Below are positions 4,418 to 17,998 of a stretch of 32,000 nt of DNA, piece by piece; the first letter of the stretch is position 1; the number at the start of each line of letters is the position of its first letter. Location of the stretch: the NCBI GenBank assembly GCA_020632335.1, contig JACKFV010000002.1, forward strand, positions 40,181 through 72,180, written 5' to 3'. The position numbers and the translations under genes are program-made. This stretch comes from Candidatus Saccharimonadota bacterium (GTDB lineage Bacteria > Patescibacteriota > Gracilibacteria > UBA4473). Under the pieces are notes generated by a model. That model had not been told where the DNA came from. It saw only the letters and a program-made list of their open reading frames with translations, and made no database searches.

Positions 4418-4870
4418 TTACAAGTATAGGACTTCTTTCAATAAATAAAAGAAAAATAGATGTATTATGAATCCTATCATCTGCATAGTTACTATGAAGG
4501 AGATCCACCCTGTAACGCCTAATACATCGAATGCAAGCACTAATATCAATAGGAGAGATGAGTATTCAAGTACTAATAGCTTCCAAAAATTTTTACGCAA
4601 TTTTGGTATAGCTTTTATGTATATTAGATAAGAACCAAGTCCTATGATAGCTAATCCCAAATGGATAGTAGTTATTGTAACTGTATGAGGAAATAAAGCC
4701 ATGATATAGAATGTGATAGAGCACACTATAGTAACAAATAATGAGATAACGCCTGCGTAGAGGTATCTAGTGAGCCACTTATGGCTAGTGGTTTCAAAGG
4801 ACCATGCCTCTTTGAAAAGTTCCCATCTCCGTTGTTCTGGAGATAGATTACAATTATCGGATTTTTTCAT
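4418..4870 (-). CDS. Hypothetical multi-pass membrane protein (AT-rich, foreign-looking)
   Basis: 150 aa from ATG 4870 (MKKSDNCNLSPEQRRWELFKEAW...). About four hydrophobic helices. Third codon positions are AT-rich, unlike all neighbouring genes. The longer 167-aa ORF start at 4921 is not preferred. Confidence 0.6.
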   Translation of the reverse strand: MKKSDNCNLSPEQRRWELFKEAWSFETTSHKWLTRYLYAGVISLFVTIVCSITFYIMALFPHTVTITTIHLGLAIIGLGSYLIYIKAIPKLRKNFWKLLVLEYSSLLLILVLAFDVLGVTGWISFIVTMQMIGFIIHLFFFYLLKEVLYL

Positions 4871-4948
4871 AATATATATAATTCTTGAAATGATGAATAA
4901 ATAAAAGAAATGACGCGCCACAACTGCACTTGTGGAGGAGTCACCGGT

Positions 4949-8929: not shown

Positions 8930-9973
8930 ATGCAGTCGCTGTACTTCGACGCCGCCGCTACCACCCCCCTCGCACCAGAGGCCGCCGACGCGATGGACGC
9001 CCTGCGCGATACCTGGGGGAATAGTGCCTCGCAGCACCACCTGGGGAGGGAGTCCAGAGCTGTGGTAGAGCGCTCGCTCACCCGCATAGCCGAGGTACTA
9101 GGGGTGTCACCGCATCAGCTGACTCCTACGCATGGCGGCACCCACGGGAACCAGCAGGTGCTCCAGGTGGCTGCGCGGCGGTGGGGGTGGGCGCACCTTT
9201 ATGCCAGCACGGTGGAGCACAGCAGCGTTGTTGACCTCCTCCTGCCCGAGAATCGCTTTGACCCTATGACCTTTGCGGGTACCCGCCCGGAGGCCAGGCT
9301 GCTGGCTCTCATGCAGGTGAATAACGAGACCGGTGCCATCTATGATATCGCAGCGCTGCGGCGCTCCTTCCCGGACGCGGTGCTCCTCAGCGACTGGGTA
9401 CAGGCCGTGCACCGGGTGCCCCACAGCTGGCTGGCGGAGGTAGATATAGCGACCTTCAGCGCGCATAAATTCGGTGGACCTAAGGGCATGGGTGTGCTCT
9501 ATACCGCGGTACCAGAGGCCTGGCCGGAGCTCACCGCGCAGCACCACACCGTAGACCACGTGCGGCTGGCGGGCATGGCGGCGGCGCTCCTGCGTGACCC
9601 CAAGGCCGAGCATCTCCAGCGCCTCACGCTCCACCTCCAGCAACTGCTGCAGGCCTCTGTACCCGGGCTGATTATCCACCGCCATGGCATTGCTCAGGCT
9701 AGTGGTATCCTCAGCGTGAGTGTGCCAGGGGTGCGTGGAGCGCAGATAATGCGCCTACTGGACACCGAAGAGGCCCTCTGTGTGAGCACCGGCGCGGCCT
9801 GCACGCGGAATATTTTTGCTCCCTCACGCGTGCTCCAGGCCATCACCAGCGACACGCAGCACCACTACCCCGTGCGACTGAGCCTGCATACGGGCTTGAC
9901 GCTGGAGGATACCGAACACTTGGCCGCCGCCTTTGCCAGCATTGTGGGGCAGCTGCGGGCACAAGTGCGGTGA
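8930..9973 (+). CDS. Class V aminotransferase / cysteine desulfurase (NifS/IscS-like, short form)
   Basis: 347 aa. It has the PLP-lysine motif SAHKFGGPKGMGVLY and the catalytic-Cys motif STGAACT. It is the only CDS in the window ending in TGA. Confidence 0.8.
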   Translation: MQSLYFDAAATTPLAPEAADAMDALRDTWGNSASQHHLGRESRAVVERSLTRIAEVLGVSPHQLTPTHGGTHGNQQVLQVAARRWGWAHLYASTVEHSSVVDLLLPENRFDPMTFAGTRPEARLLALMQVNNETGAIYDIAALRRSFPDAVLLSDWVQAVHRVPHSWLAEVDIATFSAHKFGGPKGMGVLYTAVPEAWPELTAQHHTVDHVRLAGMAAALLRDPKAEHLQRLTLHLQQLLQASVPGLIIHRHGIAQASGILSVSVPGVRGAQIMRLLDTEEALCVSTGAACTRNIFAPSRVLQAITSDTQHHYPVRLSLHTGLTLEDTEHLAAAFASIVGQLRAQVR

Positions 9974-12378: not shown

Positions 12379-14460
12379 ATGACCAAGCACTATCCGCTCA
12401 ACCGGGTTCGTAACATCGGTATTATTGCGCATATCGACGCGGGAAAAACCACCGTGTCTGAGCGCATCCTCTTCTACACCGGGGTGAACCACAAGATAGG
12501 CGAAGTGCACGAGGGCCAGGCCACCATGGACTGGATGGAGCAAGAGCAGGAGCGGGGGATCACCATTACCTCTGCAGCCACCACGTGCTTCTGGAATGAC
12601 TGCCAGATCAACATCATCGACACGCCCGGGCACGTGGACTTCACCGTAGAGGTAGAGCGTAGCCTGCGGGTGCTGGATGGTGCGGTGGCGATCTTCGACG
12701 GGGTGAGTGGCGTAGAGCCCCAGTCCGAGACGGTATGGCGCCAGGCCGACCGCTATGGCGTGCCGCGCATGTGCTTTATCAATAAGCTGGACCGTACCGG
12801 GGCTAGCTTCATGCGCAGCTACCAGAGTATCCTCGACCGCCTGTGTCGCGACGCCCTGCCCATCCAGCTGCCCATCGGCGAGGAAAGTGCCTTCAAAGGA
12901 CTGGTGGATCTGGTGGGGAACTGCGCCTATATCTACCATGATGACTTGGGGCAGGAGATCGAGAAGATTGCCATCCCGGCCGATATGACAGATCTGGCCG
13001 CGGAGTGGCGAGAGAAACTGGTGGAGAATGTGGCGGGCACCGACGAAGTGCTGATGCATAAGTACCTGGAGGAGGGCTCGCTGACCGAAGCAGAGCTCAA
13101 AGAGGGCATCCGTAAAGCCACGCTCGCGGGGGATCTGGTGCCAGTACTCACGGGTACGGCGCTCAAGAACAAAGGGGTGCAACTGCTGCTGGACGCCGTA
13201 ACGGCCTACCTCCCCAGCCCTCTGGACATCCCCCCTGCAGAAGGCAAAGACCCCGAGAACCCCGAGGTTACCCTGGTGCGCAAACCAGACGATAAAGAGC
13301 CCCTGGCAGCCCTGGCGTTCAAGGTAGCGACTGACCCTTATGTAGGGCGGCTGACCTTTGTGCGGGTCTACAGCGGAGTGATGGAGAGCGGCAGCTACGT
13401 CTATAACCCTACCAGTGGGCAAAAGGAGCGCATCGGGCGACTGCTGCAGATGCACGCTAATAAGCGGGAGGAGATCAGCGTGATCCCCGCGGGGCAGATA
13501 GGCGCGGTAGTGGGGCTGAAGAGCACCAAGACCGGCGAGACGCTCTGCGACGATAAACAGCCCATTGTGCTGGAGAGTATGGAATTCCCCGAGCCGGTGA
13601 TTTCTATCTCCGTTGAGCCCAAGAGTAAGGCTGATCAGGAGAAAATGAGCCTGGCGCTGAGCAAGCTGGCGGAGGAGGACCCTACCTTCAAAGTGCATAC
13701 CGACGAAGAAACCAACCAGACCATCATCAGCGGTATGGGTGAGCTGCACCTGGATATCATTGTGGACCGTATGAAGCGGGAATTCAAGGTGGAGTGTAAT
13801 ATCGGTCAGCCGCAGGTGGCCTACCGCGAGACGATTCAGGAGGAGGTGGAGTCTAAGTACACGCACAAGAAACAGACCGGTGGACGCGGGCAGTTCGGGG
13901 AGGTGGTGTGTAAAATCCGCCCTGGTAAGCCGGGCCATGGCTTTGTCTTCATCAATAGTATCAAGGGGGCATCTATCCCGAACGAGTACATCCCCGGGTG
14001 TGAGAAGGGCTTTGCAGAGGCCATGACGCGTGGTATCCGCGCGGGTTACCCGGTGGTAGACGTGGAGGTCGAGCTCATCGACGGGAGCTACCATGACGTG
14101 GATTCGAGCGAGTTGGCATTCAAGATTGCCGCGGCACAGGCCTTCAAGGAGGGAGCCGTACGCGCTAAACCGGTCATCCTCGAGCCGATGATGAATGTAG
14201 AGATTACCACGCCAGAGGACTACATGGGGGATGTCATGGGGAATGTGAGCGGTAAGCGCGGGATCATCCAGGAGAGTGGTGACCGTGGCCTGGCCAAGTA
14301 CATCAAGGCGCAGATACCGCTAGCGAACATGTTTGGTTACGCCACTGACCTCCGGAGTATGACCCAGGGCCGCGCCAACTACTCTATGGAATTTGCCAAC
14401 TACGTGAAAGCGCCGAATACCGTAGCAGATCAGATCATCGCTGAGCGCTCCGGAAAGTAG
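12379..14460 (+). CDS. fusA: Translation elongation factor G
   Basis: 693 aa. G-domain motifs [14 protein letters not shown] and NKLD, with full-length EF-G architecture. Confidence 0.97.
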
Positions 14461-14524: not shown

Positions 14525-14552
14525 TTGACCATATGCCCTCAGTTTCTACACT
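14525..14552 (+). promoter_or_regulatory. tRNA-Met promoter
   Basis: TTGACC (14525-14530), 16 nt, TACACT (14547-14552). The tRNA starts at 14563. Confidence 0.6.
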
Positions 14553-14562
14553 CCGTACAGTG

Positions 14563-14638
14563 GGGCGAGTAGCTCAGAGGTTAGAGCAGGGCGCTCATAA
14601 CGCCTTGGCCGGGGGTTCAATTCCCTCCTCGCCCACCA
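14563..14638 (+). tRNA. tRNA with anticodon CAU, elongator type (Met, or Ile2 if lysidinylated), CCA encoded
   Basis: Acceptor GGGCGAG/CTCGCCC with the G1-C72 pair present, so it is not an initiator. D arm GCTC-AGAGGTTA-GAGC. Anticodon stem GGGCG/CGCCT with loop CTCATAA. T arm GGGGG-TTCAATT-CCCTC. ACCA end. Confidence 0.9.
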
Positions 14639-14673
14639 TTTCATGTCATGACAAACAACTTCCCTCATTTAAC

Positions 14674-15369
14674 ATGAAAGAAGATAATAAAAAAATATTT
14701 GGTGAGTACAGAAAAGAGGCTCTTGATTTTTGGAGGAAAGAAACGGGAAGAGCAGACGAAAAAGAATGTGAAGAGTCTTCAATTTACGAAGGTGCGTACG
14801 AATGTCGATGGCAAGGCGAGTTACCCGAACCAAAACATAACAGCTTTTTTTGCTCAATGGGTAATTTTGCAAGCAATGTAGATGATTTGTTGACTGATTC
14901 AAGGAGAGATGAAGTAGACATTCAAAAAGCTTTGAATGATCCTGAAAATCATGATTGTGGAGCTTTGTACCGATTTTACACGCGTATTTTACTGGTTGCT
15001 GAAACAATCGTTGAAGATTTTGAGATGGTTTTACAAAAAGACCTTCCCAAGTCAGCAAAAAATTTGAAGAAATTTGTAAATGCTGTCATCAAGCATAGTT
15101 GTAAAAATGGACGAGGGATACACTTTTACAAAAAAAACCACCACCTACCTCTTTTGATCGAACATTGGGGATTTGGTGATGATGATTCTGAAATGAAAGA
15201 ATTGTCAGTTGATACGTTAGGCAAGGATGATTACAATTGCCTACGATTGCCAAGTCTTTACTCGATAGTTGAAAGTCTTCTTGATTGTTATAAAAAGCTG
15301 GATGAGAAACTTAAAGATGATGATTTTGCGAAAAATTTTCACTATACCTATACAAAAACATGGGATTAG
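14674..15369 (+). CDS. Hypothetical soluble protein, orphan (231 aa)
   Basis: Long open frame in AT-rich DNA, where stops are frequent, starting MKEDNKKIFGEYRKEALDFWRKETGR... The upstream part of the 290-aa track ORF runs through the tRNA and is discarded. I recognise no motif. Confidence 0.65.
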   Translation: MKEDNKKIFGEYRKEALDFWRKETGRADEKECEESSIYEGAYECRWQGELPEPKHNSFFCSMGNFASNVDDLLTDSRRDEVDIQKALNDPENHDCGALYRFYTRILLVAETIVEDFEMVLQKDLPKSAKNLKKFVNAVIKHSCKNGRGIHFYKKNHHLPLLIEHWGFGDDDSEMKELSVDTLGKDDYNCLRLPSLYSIVESLLDCYKKLDEKLKDDDFAKNFHYTYTKTWD

Positions 15370-15574
15370 TAAGGGGTAGTGGCAAATTGCCTCCCTCCTA
15401 CCCGTGACAATCTGTCACGACCTGATGTAAATATTGCACCTGAGACGAGTTTGGATTTCCCCATTTTTGTACTACACTTTTAATGGTCATGACAAACAAG
15501 TCATCGTACCGTTTGGCTGGTAGTTCAATTGCTGTCTTGTCTAGCCCACCATTGATTATCATGACAAAGAACTC
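15370..15574 (+). repeat. Inter-ORF module A
   Basis: 5' block TAAGGGGTAGTGGCAAATTGCCTCC (15370-15394). Hairpin CGTGACAATCTGTCACG (15403-15419). Extra junction copy GTCATGACAAACAA (15486-15499). 3' block GGTAGTTCAATTGCTGTCTTGTCTAGCCCACCATTGATTATCATGACAAAGAAC (15519-15572). Alignable to module B at both ends. Confidence 0.75.
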
Positions 15575-15838
15575 ATGGAAAATCTAGAACAAGAAATACT
15601 CAGAATTAAAGAAAGAAATCAACAGAAAGAATGGGATAAGGCATGGGAAACTTCTCTTTTTCGAAAAGTTGTAATAGCTATTCTCACTTACTTGGTAATA
15701 GTACTTTTCTTCTATTTTGCTGAACTTCCTTCACCATTTATAAATGCAGTAGTTCCCACTCTAGGATTCGTACTTAGTACCCTCTCCTTACCTCTATTTA
15801 AAAGGGTTTGGCTCAGATACTTTCATCAAGACAAGTAA
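15575..15838 (+). CDS. Hypothetical small two-TM membrane protein (87 aa)
   Basis: MENLEQEILRIKERNQQKEWDKAWETS is followed by two hydrophobic helices and a basic tail. The ATG lies 23 nt after the pseudo-CCA end of module A. Confidence 0.6.
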   Translation: MENLEQEILRIKERNQQKEWDKAWETSLFRKVVIAILTYLVIVLFFYFAELPSPFINAVVPTLGFVLSTLSLPLFKRVWLRYFHQDK

Positions 15839-16016
15839 GGGTAGTGGCAAATTGCCTCCACCCCTGTTCGTGACAATTTGTCACAGTCTGAAATACCTCA
15901 ATCTCAAGAGGGGGACAATTTGTCCCCCTCCTTTTCTATTCGTGACACTCCGTCCGTCTGGTTGAGGGGTCAATTGCTGTCTTCCCCATGCCCACCATTG
16001 CATGTTATGACACATA
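15836..16016 (+). repeat. Inter-ORF module B
   Basis: 5' block TAAGGGTAGTGGCAAATTGCCTCC (15836-15859), beginning at the ORF stop codon. Hairpin GTGACAATTTGTCAC (15870-15884). Hairpin GGGGGACAATTTGTCCCCC (15910-15928). 3' block GAGGGGTCAATTGCTGTCTTCCCCATGCCCACCATTGCATGTTATGACACATAA (15964-16017). Confidence 0.75.
15910..15937 (+). terminator. Possible rho-independent terminator inside module B
   Basis: An 8-bp stem GGGGGACA/TGTCCCCC with loop ATT, followed by TCCTTTTCT. Confidence 0.45.
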
Positions 16017-16179
16017 ATGATGAATAGAGAAGTAGAAGAAAGTACTTCTGGAAACAATTCTTTCAATAGACTATTGCAAAGAGGAATTACACCATCATTA
16101 TGATTCTTTCAAAGCCATTTTTGCAGTATTTTAATAGAAGTCTACAACTATTGCATTGTGAAGTATCATCCCTTGATCC

Positions 16180-16207
16180 TTGCACTCGGGGCGCTTTTCA
16201 GTAGAGA
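16180..16207 (+). promoter_or_regulatory. Elp3 promoter, leaderless configuration
   Basis: TTGCAC (16180-16185), 16 nt, TAGAGA (16202-16207), 6 nt (GGCACT), ATG 16214. Confidence 0.55.
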
Positions 16208-16213
16208 GGCACT

Positions 16214-17998
16214 ATGAGCCTGCGCATCGCCAAGGACGCCTCTGGGCAGTATGTACACACGCCCTCTATGGAGGCGAAAAAGCACAAGATTGCCAGCTTT
16301 GGCACGCGTCAGCGGGTGGAGAATACCGCGGTGGTGGAGCGGTTCTTGCGCGAACTGGTGGCGGATATCCCCCCGGATAAGAAGACGCTCGAGCAGCGCA
16401 AGTACACTTTTGCGGCGGCGGAGCAGCTCCCACTCATCGAGAACCGGGACCTCATCGCCATCGCGCAGCAGTGGGAGCAGCAGGGGAATCCTGTACCAGA
16501 GACGCTCCTCCAACTGCTGCGGAAGCGCTCCGTGCGGACCATCAGCGGGGTCAGCCCCATTGGCATCCTCACCAAGCCCTACCCCTGCCCCGGCAAGTGC
16601 GTCTACTGCCCGACGGAAGACCGCATGCCCAAAAGCTACATGAGCAACCAGCCCGCCGCGGCACGCGCCCTGCGGAATAAATTTCACCCCTATGACCAGG
16701 TCATCAACCGGCTGCACGCGCTGGAGGACAGCGGCCACCCCGTCAGCAAGCTGGAGGTGATCGTCATGGGCGGCACCTGGAGCTTCCTCCCCAAGAAATA
16801 CCAGAGCTGGTACTGCAAGAAAATCTACGACGCGGCCAATGATGACGGGCGCGTACACGCCACGCACAAGAGTCTCTCGGCCAGCCAGCACGCTAATGAG
16901 ACCGCTGCACGCAAGATCATCGGGCTGACGCTGGAGACGCGCCCGGATTTCATCACCCCCAAGGAGCTCTACCGTATGCGCCAGTACGGCTGCACGAGGA
17001 TAGAGATCGGGGTACAGACGCTGGACGACACGGTGCAAACCCTCACCAAACGGGGGCACAAGAAGGCCGAGGTAGTACGCGCTATGCGGCTGATGAAGGA
17101 CTACGGGTTCAAGGTCTGCTGGCACCTGATGCCCGGGCTACCCGGCTCTACGCCCGAGAAGGACCTGCAGTGGCTGCGTGAGGTATTCGAGGACCCCGAC
17201 TGCCGCCCGGACTTTGTGAAGATCTACCCCTGTGTGGTGCTGGAGACCGCTGAGCTGAAGCAGTGGTGGCAAGAGGGCCGCTACCAGCCCTACACCGACG
17301 AGCAGCTCATCAAGCTGCTGCTGCAGTTCAAGACCTTTGTACCGCCCTGGACGCGCGTCATGCGGCTGATGCGCGACATCCCCGTGACCAACATCCTCGA
17401 CGGGGCCAAGTTCTCTAACCTTCGGCAGATACTGCGGTCTCAGCCCGAGAAGCTGCGCGAGATAGTAGGGGAGCAGTGGTACACCGCCTACCAGGCCGAG
17501 CGAGCCGAAGAGTCGGGGAGCTGGCCCTGCCGGTGCATCCGTTGTAGAGAGATTGGCTTCCAGAGCTTTGCCACCGCGGCAGAGGTGCCCGTGCCGGTGC
17601 TCAAACGCCGCAGCTATAGCGCCAGTGGGGGCACGGAGGAGTTTCTCAGCTTTGAGAGCGAGGACGAGCAGCACCTCTTTGCCCTGCTACGGCTACGGCG
17701 CCCCAGTGGGAAGAGCCCACTACTACAGTGGGAGGGCATACTGGGGGAGGGCTGCGCGCTCATCCGTGAGGTGCACAGCTATGGGAGTGAGATCGCCGTG
17801 GGAGACAGTGCCGGAGTGGGGCAGCACCGCGGACTGGGCACACGACTCATGCACGAAGCCGAGCGCTTAGCGCGGGAGGAGTGGGGTTGCCACACCATGA
17901 CGGTCATCGCGGGGGTGGGCACGCGGGACTACTACCGCAGGTTTGGCTATACCCTCCAGCATACGTATATGGTCAAGCGTCTACTCCAGAGCCACTAG
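16214..17998 (+). CDS. elp3: Elp3-type radical-SAM/GNAT enzyme (tRNA U34 carboxymethylation family)
   Basis: 594 aa. RTISGVSPIGILTKPYPCPGKCVYCP matches the Elp3 N-terminal block with the CxxxCxxC iron-sulfur motif. A TIM-like radical-SAM core follows (IEIGVQTLDD). The C-terminal GNAT domain carries the acetyl-CoA motif QHRGLGTRLMHEAERLA. Confidence 0.85.
   Translation: MSLRIAKDASGQYVHTPSMEAKKHKIASFGTRQRVENTAVVERFLRELVADIPPDKKTLEQRKYTFAAAEQLPLIENRDLIAIAQQWEQQGNPVPETLLQLLRKRSVRTISGVSPIGILTKPYPCPGKCVYCPTEDRMPKSYMSNQPAAARALRNKFHPYDQVINRLHALEDSGHPVSKLEVIVMGGTWSFLPKKYQSWYCKKIYDAANDDGRVHATHKSLSASQHANETAARKIIGLTLETRPDFITPKELYRMRQYGCTRIEIGVQTLDDTVQTLTKRGHKKAEVVRAMRLMKDYGFKVCWHLMPGLPGSTPEKDLQWLREVFEDPDCRPDFVKIYPCVVLETAELKQWWQEGRYQPYTDEQLIKLLLQFKTFVPPWTRVMRLMRDIPVTNILDGAKFSNLRQILRSQPEKLREIVGEQWYTAYQAERAEESGSWPCRCIRCREIGFQSFATAAEVPVPVLKRRSYSASGGTEEFLSFESEDEQHLFALLRLRRPSGKSPLLQWEGILGEGCALIREVHSYGSEIAVGDSAGVGQHRGLGTRLMHEAERLAREEWGCHTMTVIAGVGTRDYYRRFGYTLQHTYMVKRLLQSH

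Follow-up and report, generated by a model that had tools for sequence, protein, structure and literature searches.

Genomic islands standing in tandem behind tRNA or ssrA genes, parted by partial copies of those genes and marked by a conserved non-target motif beside the repeat, have been described in several lineages (bioRxiv 10.1101/2020.12.28.424599; PMC3146451; PMC4383910), and so have the cis-mobilizable elements (CIMEs), integrase-less units flanked by attachment (att) sites that are regarded as decay products moving only with an adjacent functional element (PMC5704250). The subject of this analysis is a short stretch directly behind a tRNA-Met(CAT) gene in a window of 32,000 nucleotides (nt; contig JACKFV010000002.1 of a Candidatus Saccharimonadota bacterium, positions 40,181 to 72,180), in which two open reading frames (ORFs), ORF1 and ORF2, are each followed by a module, A and B, whose tRNA-like ends had been pointed out in an initial annotation. 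Among known kinds of element the stretch most closely resembles the tandem tRNA/ssrA islands and the CIMEs derived from them and, in its logic, the arrays of integrons. We consider it likely that small, foreign, integrase-less cassettes form a tandem array here at the 3' end of tRNA-Met, that site-specific recombination at CCACCA moves them in trans, and that the tRNA promoter probably drives their transcription. Modules A and B are the junctions between cassettes and not tRNA-like RNAs, and the imitation of a tRNA half that is found at each joint most likely acts as a DNA recombination site rather than as RNA.

The islet (14639 to ~16190) has a GC content of 34-43% and lies directly 3' of the intact tRNA-Met(CAT) gene in a genome of ~60% GC; the genes that flank it have 58-63% GC, and 500-nt windows outside low-GC patches mostly have 55-68%. 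It holds ORF1, module A, ORF2 and module B, then an ORF of 28 amino acids (aa) with a low-GC tail, and divides into cassette 1 (14639-15551, with ORF1), cassette 2 (15552-15997, with ORF2) and a truncated third unit. The pattern GCCCACCATTn7ATGACA occurs at 14631, 15544 and 15990 (three copies, 0 expected). The initial annotation had counted two such T-arm- and CCA-like 3' blocks, which do end both modules; there are three copies, however, and the first is the real 3' end of tRNA-Met itself. The last 7 nt of the tRNA, CCCACCA, recur at 15545 and 15991, each time followed by a (T/C)ATGACA leader, and the repeat of the tRNA 3' part extends ~22 nt past the CCA. In a local-alignment scan with the tRNA 3' end these three copies are the only strong ones, with weaker partial matches at 15480 and 15909. 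The leaders share the consensus TT..(T/C)ATGACAAASAA and end 3-25 nt before an ATG. The features of the array, each with its basis in brackets, are the following.

14525-14552, + strand: sigma-70-like promoter match, TTGACC-16-TACACT, just upstream of the tRNA (consensus match only)
14563-14638, + strand: tRNA-Met(CAT), intact, the putative integration target, attL side (ARAGORN; Rfam RF00005, 70.7 bits)
14632-14638, + strand: core copy 0, CCCACCA, comprising acceptor 3' strand, discriminator and CCA (sequence)
14639-14673, + strand: leader 0, proximal arm of cassette 1, TTTCATGTCATGACAAACAAC... (comparison with L017)
14674-15369, + strand: ORF1, cargo of cassette 1, 231 aa, 35.5% GC (translation, family searches)
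15370-15394, + strand: 5' block A, TAAGGGGTAGTGGCAAATTGCCTCC, with the palindrome GGCAAATTGCC (sequence, pattern scans)
15403-15418, + strand: inverted TGACA pair or hairpin A, CGTGACAATCTGTCAC (sequence, folding)
15486-15500, + strand: distal-arm copy of the leader motif, GTCATGACAAACAAG, an extra copy in module A (alignment)
15507-15551, + strand: tRNA-Met 3'-half mimic A, ACCGTTTGG..GTTCAATTGCTGTCTT..GCCCACCA, with core copy 1 at 15545-15551; right end of cassette 1 (alignment, profile)
15552-15574, + strand: leader 1, proximal arm of cassette 2, TTGATTATCATGACAAAGAACTC (sequence, BLAST boundary)
15575-15838, + strand: ORF2, cargo of cassette 2, 87 aa, two transmembrane (TM) helices, 34% GC (translation, family search)
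15836-15859, + strand: 5' block B, TAAGGGTAGTGGCAAATTGCCTCC, its TAA being the stop codon of ORF2 (sequence)
15869-15884, + strand: inverted TGACA pair or hairpin B, CGTGACAATTTGTCAC (sequence, folding)
15908-15940, + strand: terminator-like hairpin, GAGGGGGACAATTTGTCCCCCTC plus CTTTTCTATT (terminator scan, folding)
15942-15997, + strand: distal-arm GTGACAC and mimic B, CCGTCTGG..GGTCAATTGCTGTCTT..GCCCACCA, with core copy 2 at 15991-15997; right end of cassette 2 (alignment, profile)
15998-16016, + strand: leader 2, TTGCATGTTATGACACATA, start of the third, truncated unit (sequence)
16017-16103, + strand: 28-aa ORF at the place expected for the start of a cassette ORF (sequence reading)
16104-16190, + strand: low-GC tail of the islet, lacking a closing block, with a promoter-like match before elp3 (sequence)

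The evidence that carries this reading is that homology between otherwise unrelated genomes begins and ends precisely at the core. Related loci were reached through the contigs of ORF2-family homologues and not through module patterns, and BLAST comparison of these loci delimits discrete units. L017 9973-10363 and L009 3973-4363 are 91% identical over 391 nt, from CCCACCAT to CCCACCAT, and the two loci are unrelated outside this segment; the same ORF2-type cassette has a real tRNA-Met to its left and a terminator-like site to its right in L017, and stands among other units in L009. An 82% match between L014 9523-9848 and L009 6771-7086 likewise starts at CCACCA; its left-hand neighbour is, in L014, the 3' end of a transfer-messenger RNA (tmRNA) gene and, in L009, a mimic block. 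A 74% match between window 15545-15768 and L009 3973-4194 starts at the second core of the window. Bar one extra base, the window and L017 have the same leader behind tRNA-Met, although it precedes ORF1 in the former and an ORF2 homologue in the latter; the two tRNA-Met genes are visibly more divergent than their leaders. Discrete units bounded by CCACCA in different genomic contexts are the signature of site-specific insertion. Since the tRNA is intact and module-type sequence is always on the left side of the distal core, strand exchange has to take place in or next to CCCACCA; an asymmetric 3'-end sublocation of tDNA targets has been described (bioRxiv 10.1101/2020.11.02.365908). A crossover in the T-loop or the anticodon loop was rejected, as it would put module-type sequence inside the tRNA, and a miniature inverted-repeat transposable element (MITE) or a repeat of the repetitive extragenic palindromic (REP) kind was rejected too, because every copy has the same orientation and the copies delimit the homology.

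Ahead of the window's second and third cores stands a block of 47 nt with the layout ACCGTTTGG-N6-GKTCAATWKCTGTCTT-N5/6, which imitates the tRNA half from just after the anticodon, the T-stem 3' strand being replaced by (AT/TG)CTGTCTT plus 5-6 nt. Six full blocks, all on the same strand, occur in three genomes (window A and B, three in L009 and one in L017). An nhmmer profile built from them scores the blocks at 40-57 bits and also picks up genuine tRNA-Met 3' halves (that of L017 at E = 2e-4, that of the window at E = 0.11), and it is on this ground that we call the block an imitation of a tRNA half. The blocks of the window differ from the host tRNA by the insertion of 5-6 nt and are much closer to the blocks of foreign genomes (40-57 bits) than to the host tRNA (9.6 bits). 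Each internal core is, in addition, the centre of an inverted pair whose members are 17-18 nt apart, the left one being of the TGTCTTGA type and the right one TCATGACA.

The remainder of the modules agrees in large part with what had been noted initially. The sequence TAAGGG(G)TAGTGGCAAATTGCCTCC is present in both, at 15370-15394 and 15836-15859 (the 19-mer occurs twice, 0 expected), and the 5' blocks A and B are identical at 21 of 21 positions; the rule that the modules start at the stop codon of the preceding ORF holds for ORF2 (TAA) but not for ORF1, whose stop codon TAG occupies 15367-15369, with the TAA of the block after it. The hairpin CGTGACAAT(C/T)TGTCAC, at 15403-15418 and 15869-15884, and the extra element GAGGGGGACAATTTGTCCCCCTC of module B, at 15908-15930, are also there as annotated. 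The latter lies in a terminator-like hairpin (15908-15940), with none earlier on the + strand behind the tRNA; this hairpin forms part of a duplicate, internal to module B and diverged, of that module's 5' part. The centres of the modules had been thought unrelated; apart from indels and this duplicate, A and B align over their whole length. The pentamers TGACA and TGTCA, for which 0.84 occurrences are expected in the 422 nt of the modules, occur 10 times, and their positions in A correspond to those in B; motifs of the TGACAA type keep fixed places: the inverted pair, i.e. the hairpin, ~35 nt after the stop codon, then ~55 nt before the core and ~10 nt after it. At the relative place that corresponds to window 15486-15500 the modules of L017 and L009 carry TGACAAAGAA. 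The 5' block with GGCAAATTGCC, by contrast, is found in the window only and is absent from the modules of L009, L014 and L017, and therefore it is not a defining part of the system. A junction consists of the distal arm of the upstream cassette (TGACA-type repeats and the 47-nt mimic), the core CCCACCA(T), and the proximal arm, or leader, of the next cassette.

One relative is L009, on a contig of 1.93 Mb, where an ORF2 homologue is preceded by ...CACCCACCA|TTTATATCATGATAAAGAATT-ATG and followed by CCTTTTGGTAGATGGTTCAATATCTGTCTTGAAAGCCCCACCA, and where two further full blocks and three partial or degenerate ones occur on the same strand within 8 kb. Degenerate or truncated blocks lie at L009 24-45, 3931-3980 and 4507-4528, and also in L014. 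The block-bounded units L009 1744-3608 and 4533-6445 encode AbiLi-type ATPases (E = 7e-51 and 2e-62, respectively), the second together with an AbiLii/RloB-like partner; the units between the blocks comprise two AbiLi/AbiLii defence pairs, a typical mobile cargo, and the array therefore behaves as a small defence island. In L017 (SRR23592399; 9417-9979) the anticodon loop of tRNA-Met(CAT) is interrupted by a group I intron of 487 nt (RF00028, 62 bits); once spliced, this tRNA folds as a normal one, colinear with the tRNA-Met of the window and of equal length, and it is followed by CCCACCA|TTTATGTCATGACAAACAAC-ATG of the ORF2 homologue, a block and a terminator-like hairpin. In L014 the order is tmRNA gene, 23S_rRNA_IVP gene, ORF2 homologue. 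A 229-nt insert without ORF follows the tmRNA there (9285-9530); the tmRNA 3' end occurs a second time at its boundary (CTCCGGGCCATCTCCACCA), and the cassette series begins only past that second copy. In L010 (3348-4267) tRNA-Pro(TGG) is followed, directly after ..GACCA, by an ORF of 163 aa and then by an ORF2 homologue, the contig ending 100 nt further on; the layout is as in the window with a different tRNA, and there is no recognisable mimic block.

The two cargo genes of the window belong to separate protein families. ORF1 finds no match in Pfam, PHROGs, PADLOC or NCBIfam; its AlphaFold model is confident (predicted local distance difference test, pLDDT, 88; predicted template modelling score, pTM, 0.88) and mostly helical, with no neighbour in the PDB at E<1. 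Its family counts ~114 cluster representatives, in which R, W, H, C, D, K and N are invariant at certain positions; a conserved KH is among these, as is an invariant H close to it. The ORF1 relatives L004 and L005 have no modules. The ORF2 family exceeds 1500 clusters, the best 120 listed being ~82-131 aa long and 57-76% identical; the named members, few among those listed, come from Patescibacteria and Woesearchaeota, and no relative was found in viral contigs. An identical 89-aa protein of this family is encoded in classical integron cassettes of L018-L027 (e.g. L018 603-681), whose attC sites have the R'' box GCCTAAC and the R' box GTTAGAT and in which G|TTAGAT is the common joining point of three different upstream attC sites. 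One family of small membrane proteins is therefore the cargo of two different cassette systems.

Around the islet lie fusA, encoding EF-G (12379-14460), on one side and an Elp3-type radical S-adenosylmethionine (SAM)/GNAT gene (16214-17998) on the other; the closest Elp3 homologues are only 68% identical and the gene order is not kept. The tail 15998-16190 has 33.7% GC, and the 28-aa ORF within it (16017-16103) is probably a remnant. A Logan contig of 1.6 kb (L001, from SRR12358675, which is also the source of the window) is identical to exactly window 14579-16189, so that the islet is assembled there on its own, with breaks inside the tRNA and 25 nt before elp3; such breakpoints hint at branching of the assembly graph and possibly at strains with and without the cassettes. 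Elsewhere in the window, a second small patch of foreign appearance (4418-4921, - strand, ~37% GC) encodes a multi-TM protein of 167 aa between an amidase gene and a Na/Ca-exchanger gene; the protein has no match in Pfam, PHROGs or PADLOC, and there is no module motif at the patch. Between 31500 and 32000 the GC content drops to 41%, in an apparently non-coding stretch followed by the start of a small hydrophobic ORF.

These observations may be accommodated by the following mechanism. Strand exchange would take place in or beside CCACCA through a recombinase encoded elsewhere in the genome, for which the inverted pair TGTCTTGA / TCATGACA would serve as core-type sites and the repeated TGACAA motifs as arm-type sites; a junction with a core-type pair and arm-type repeats of this kind has the look of a reconstituted attP. 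After excision a cassette would be a circle with one such site, these circular single-cassette intermediates would be recombined in trans, and new cassettes could join at the tRNA or at any internal core. Because the cassettes land between the promoter-like site of the tRNA and the first terminator-like hairpin, their transcription by read-through is probable, and the cassette of L017 likewise lies between a tRNA and a terminator-like hairpin. The sigma-70-like match at 14525-14552 is a possible driver of such transcripts, and normal 3' processing of the genuine tRNA would free the cassette mRNA. The 5' block and hairpin that are specific to the window might then be extra protein-binding sites or hairpins at mRNA 3' ends.

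Several findings weigh against this account. No recombinase gene was detected in the 32-kb window or in L009, L010, L014 and L017, in searches of Pfam, PHROGs, NCBIfam and PDB sequences that covered the large ORFs of the window and a set of unannotated ORFs in L009, L010 and L017. Exact-pattern scans of genomes, metagenomes and viral contigs and BLAST against plasmids and phages yielded no further copies of the block: the 19-mer of the 5' block is absent from the viral contigs, as are the block and leader patterns; in the metagenomes the 5' block with hairpin gave 0 matches and the general core pattern 1 chance match (L008); and the junction found no match among plasmids and phages. Two matches of the 19-mer in the genome collection (L002, L003) lie inside coding DNA, are about the number expected by chance and were dropped. 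Nor was a parent integrative and conjugative or integrative and mobilizable element (ICE/IME) with the same att site found in the viral, plasmid or phage collections, and neither an allele with an empty site nor a circular junction or a product of excision came to light. The block is present in three genomes only, the third unit of the window has no closing block, which leaves the right boundary of the islet undefined, and the 5' block, which the initial annotation had emphasised most, has no counterpart elsewhere. Finally, the core overlap of classical tyrosine recombinases is 6-8 bp; the spacing of 17-18 nt between the members of the inverted pair is wider than this, and for that reason the proposed site architecture is tentative. 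A separate comparison is with the dif site of Xer recombinases, which, as used by integrative mobile elements exploiting Xer (IMEX) and in pdif modules, has 28 bp with two 11-bp arms, palindromic at their inner ends, around a centre of 6 bp; here TCATGATAAAG matches the E. coli XerD arm at 8 of 11 positions, the left side has no matching arm, and direct reading again places the inverted pair 17-18 nt apart.

That the units should not be individually mobile at all, being either leftovers of integrase-bearing, tRNA-specific islands worn down by deletion or blocks that serve as portable homology for RecA-type exchange or gene conversion, is the kind of explanation that the missing recombinase invites, since no unit encodes one; the truncated and degenerate blocks of L009 and L014 demonstrate that decay happens, the 21/21 identity of 5' blocks A and B suggests local homogenisation, and the decay of islands into CIMEs is documented (PMC5704250). 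We nonetheless judge it unlikely, for the 391-nt single-gene unit of L017 is the sole insertion between an intact tRNA-Met and a terminator-like site and recurs with the same two ends in the other context of L009, so that deletion would have had to stop exactly at both att sites twice, and the homology ends at a core of 7 nt, too short for efficient homologous exchange. The view of the modules as recombination sites, one of three that the initial annotation proposed, stands as far as conserved ends and cassette boundaries at the CCACCA core are concerned, yet its comparison with the attC sites of integrons does not. A classical integron array without integrase (clusters of attC sites lacking integrases, CALIN) could be suspected from the conserved module ends, the variable middle, the start at the stop codon and the presence of the ORF2 family in true integron cassettes with R''/R' boxes in L018-L027; however, a regular-expression search found neither R'' (RYYYAAC) nor R' (GTTRRRY) on either strand of either module, while the positive control, the attC of L018, was recovered (GCCTAAC...GTTAGAT) and folds at z = -3.6 with its R''/R' paired. 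The limits of homology lie at CCACCA and not at G|TTRRRY, module A has no significant hairpin, and no large ORF of the window carries a Phage_integrase-type domain, i.e. no IntI is encoded, all of which leaves this explanation with hardly any probability.

The same three proposals had included the decay of a tandem duplication of a tRNA-plus-ORF unit, for which it may be said that co-oriented repeats of the tRNA 3' end lie downstream of it and that, by reading, ~9-10 of the first 14 nt of the 5' block agree with the 5' end of the tRNA. In the tRNA-linked repeats of E. coli (tyrT/rtT type), copies of a tRNA 3' end do stand downstream in the same transcription unit, as here; those are local paralogous duplications, whereas the intervening genes here are unrelated, foreign and bounded by the same limits in other genomes. 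ORF1 and ORF2 come from separate families, both with ~35% GC in a host of ~60% GC, the blocks resemble those of foreign genomes far more than the host's own tRNA, and the ORF2 cassette is found elsewhere with the same limits, which makes such an origin very improbable. As to tRNA-like punctuation, the last of the three, the modules would be acceptor/T-arm mimics cut by RNase P or RNase Z, freeing monocistronic mRNAs from a transcript of the tRNA promoter. Part of its premise holds, because no terminator-like site occurs on the + strand between the tRNA and 15908, as had been stated for the stretch up to ORF1, so that read-through is possible; ACCA and the T-loop-like TTCAATT are conserved, and the minimum-free-energy folds of both modules pair the two module ends. 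As a structure, however, it finds no support. ARAGORN finds only the real tRNAs and nothing in the modules, Rfam at E<=10 gives no tRNA-clan match in module A, in module B or in L009 (where ARAGORN is blank as well), and in module A the T-stem GGTAG is not complementary to GCTGT. The acceptor-like closure described for module A does pair at 6 of 7 positions but stays at chance level, with p = 0.048 for A and p = 0.54 for B against composition-matched shuffles, and on reading the homologous modules of L009 and L017 no complementary 5' partner is seen. Module A folds no better than shuffles (z = -0.76 as DNA, -1.2 as RNA), and the z of -3.35 for module B as DNA comes from the local terminator-like hairpin 15908-15940. 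Covariation among homologues, on which the structural claim had been made to depend, speaks against it too: for the six blocks from three genomes RNAalifold returns -2.9 kcal/mol with a penalising covariation term of +0.92 and a double change in 1 of 9 pairs. We regard punctuation as quite improbable, and the joining of units through RNA, by template switching at CCA 3' ends, as scarcely probable.

Beyond the array itself, site-specific movement of cassettes would fit a more general proposition, which we advance as a tentative possibility, namely that genomes of the Patescibacteria type possess a gene-capture platform analogous to integrons, in which promoterless single-gene cassettes with a tRNA-Met 3'-half mimic as their site are captured one by one by a dedicated trans-acting recombinase at the CCACCA of tRNA-Met or tmRNA genes, with the tRNA promoter driving their expression and with exchange between lineages. 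If the cassettes do move as units in trans, they would constitute a second cassette platform beside integrons, whose docking site is the 3' end of an essential RNA gene and whose portable site is the imitation of a tRNA half. The system occurs in genomes with genes typical of ultra-small, Patescibacteria-type bacteria, whose gene exchange is poorly known, and it would explain the spread of tiny defence and membrane genes, such as the AbiL pairs and the very widespread family of the 87-aa ORF2, across genomes of very different GC content. The 47-nt block can serve as a search key for mapping further arrays and for finding the recombinase by co-occurrence.

The ssrA genomic islands (ssrA-GIs) of Dehalococcoides (PMC3146451), the tycheposons of Prochlorococcus (bioRxiv 10.1101/2020.12.28.424599) and islands of the Islander type (PMC4383910) likewise lie at the 3' end of an intact tRNA or tmRNA gene, close each unit with a direct repeat and stack upon one another, and they too are low-GC foreign DNA with defence or accessory cargo. 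With the ssrA-GIs the array of the window further shares a conserved motif beside the repeat that is unlike the target gene and helps to locate the crossover. The differences concern size and autonomy: tandem islands measure several to tens of kb, whereas the units seen here have 0.4-3 kb (0.4-0.9 kb in the window) and often hold a single gene, and the integration module of the islands is absent from all of the ~nine units. Of the features by which an Islander is defined (PMC4383910), the intact tRNA and the distal direct repeat are found here (repeats at 15544 and 15990) and an integrase of its own is not. The distal repeat of an Islander is, moreover, a displaced fragment of the host tRNA, whereas here its place is taken by a conserved imitation of 47 nt, altered in its T-stem, which the cassette carries along. 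With CIMEs (PMC5704250) the locus has in common the att sites on both sides (cassettes 1 and 2), the lack of recombination genes and the tandem position at the 3' end of a target gene; CIMEs, however, move with a neighbour, whereas one single-gene unit stands alone behind the tRNA-Met of L017 and again inside the L009 array, a distribution that suggests unit-wise movement in trans.

The arrays of integrons (PMC4889954, PMC9668308) also consist of promoterless single-gene cassettes with a recombination site of their own directly after the stop codon, ordered directionally beside a fixed site, with a promoter upstream probably driving their expression, and they share the ORF2 family as cargo. 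They differ from the present array in the R''/R' boxes, the attC hairpin, the G|TTRRRY boundary and the attI site next to intI, in place of which we find CCACCA and the end of a tRNA or tmRNA gene, with no IntI seen. What is unusual here, in comparison with all of these systems, is the very small size of the units, the absence of an integration module from every unit seen, and the use of a travelling imitation of a tRNA half as the distal repeat.

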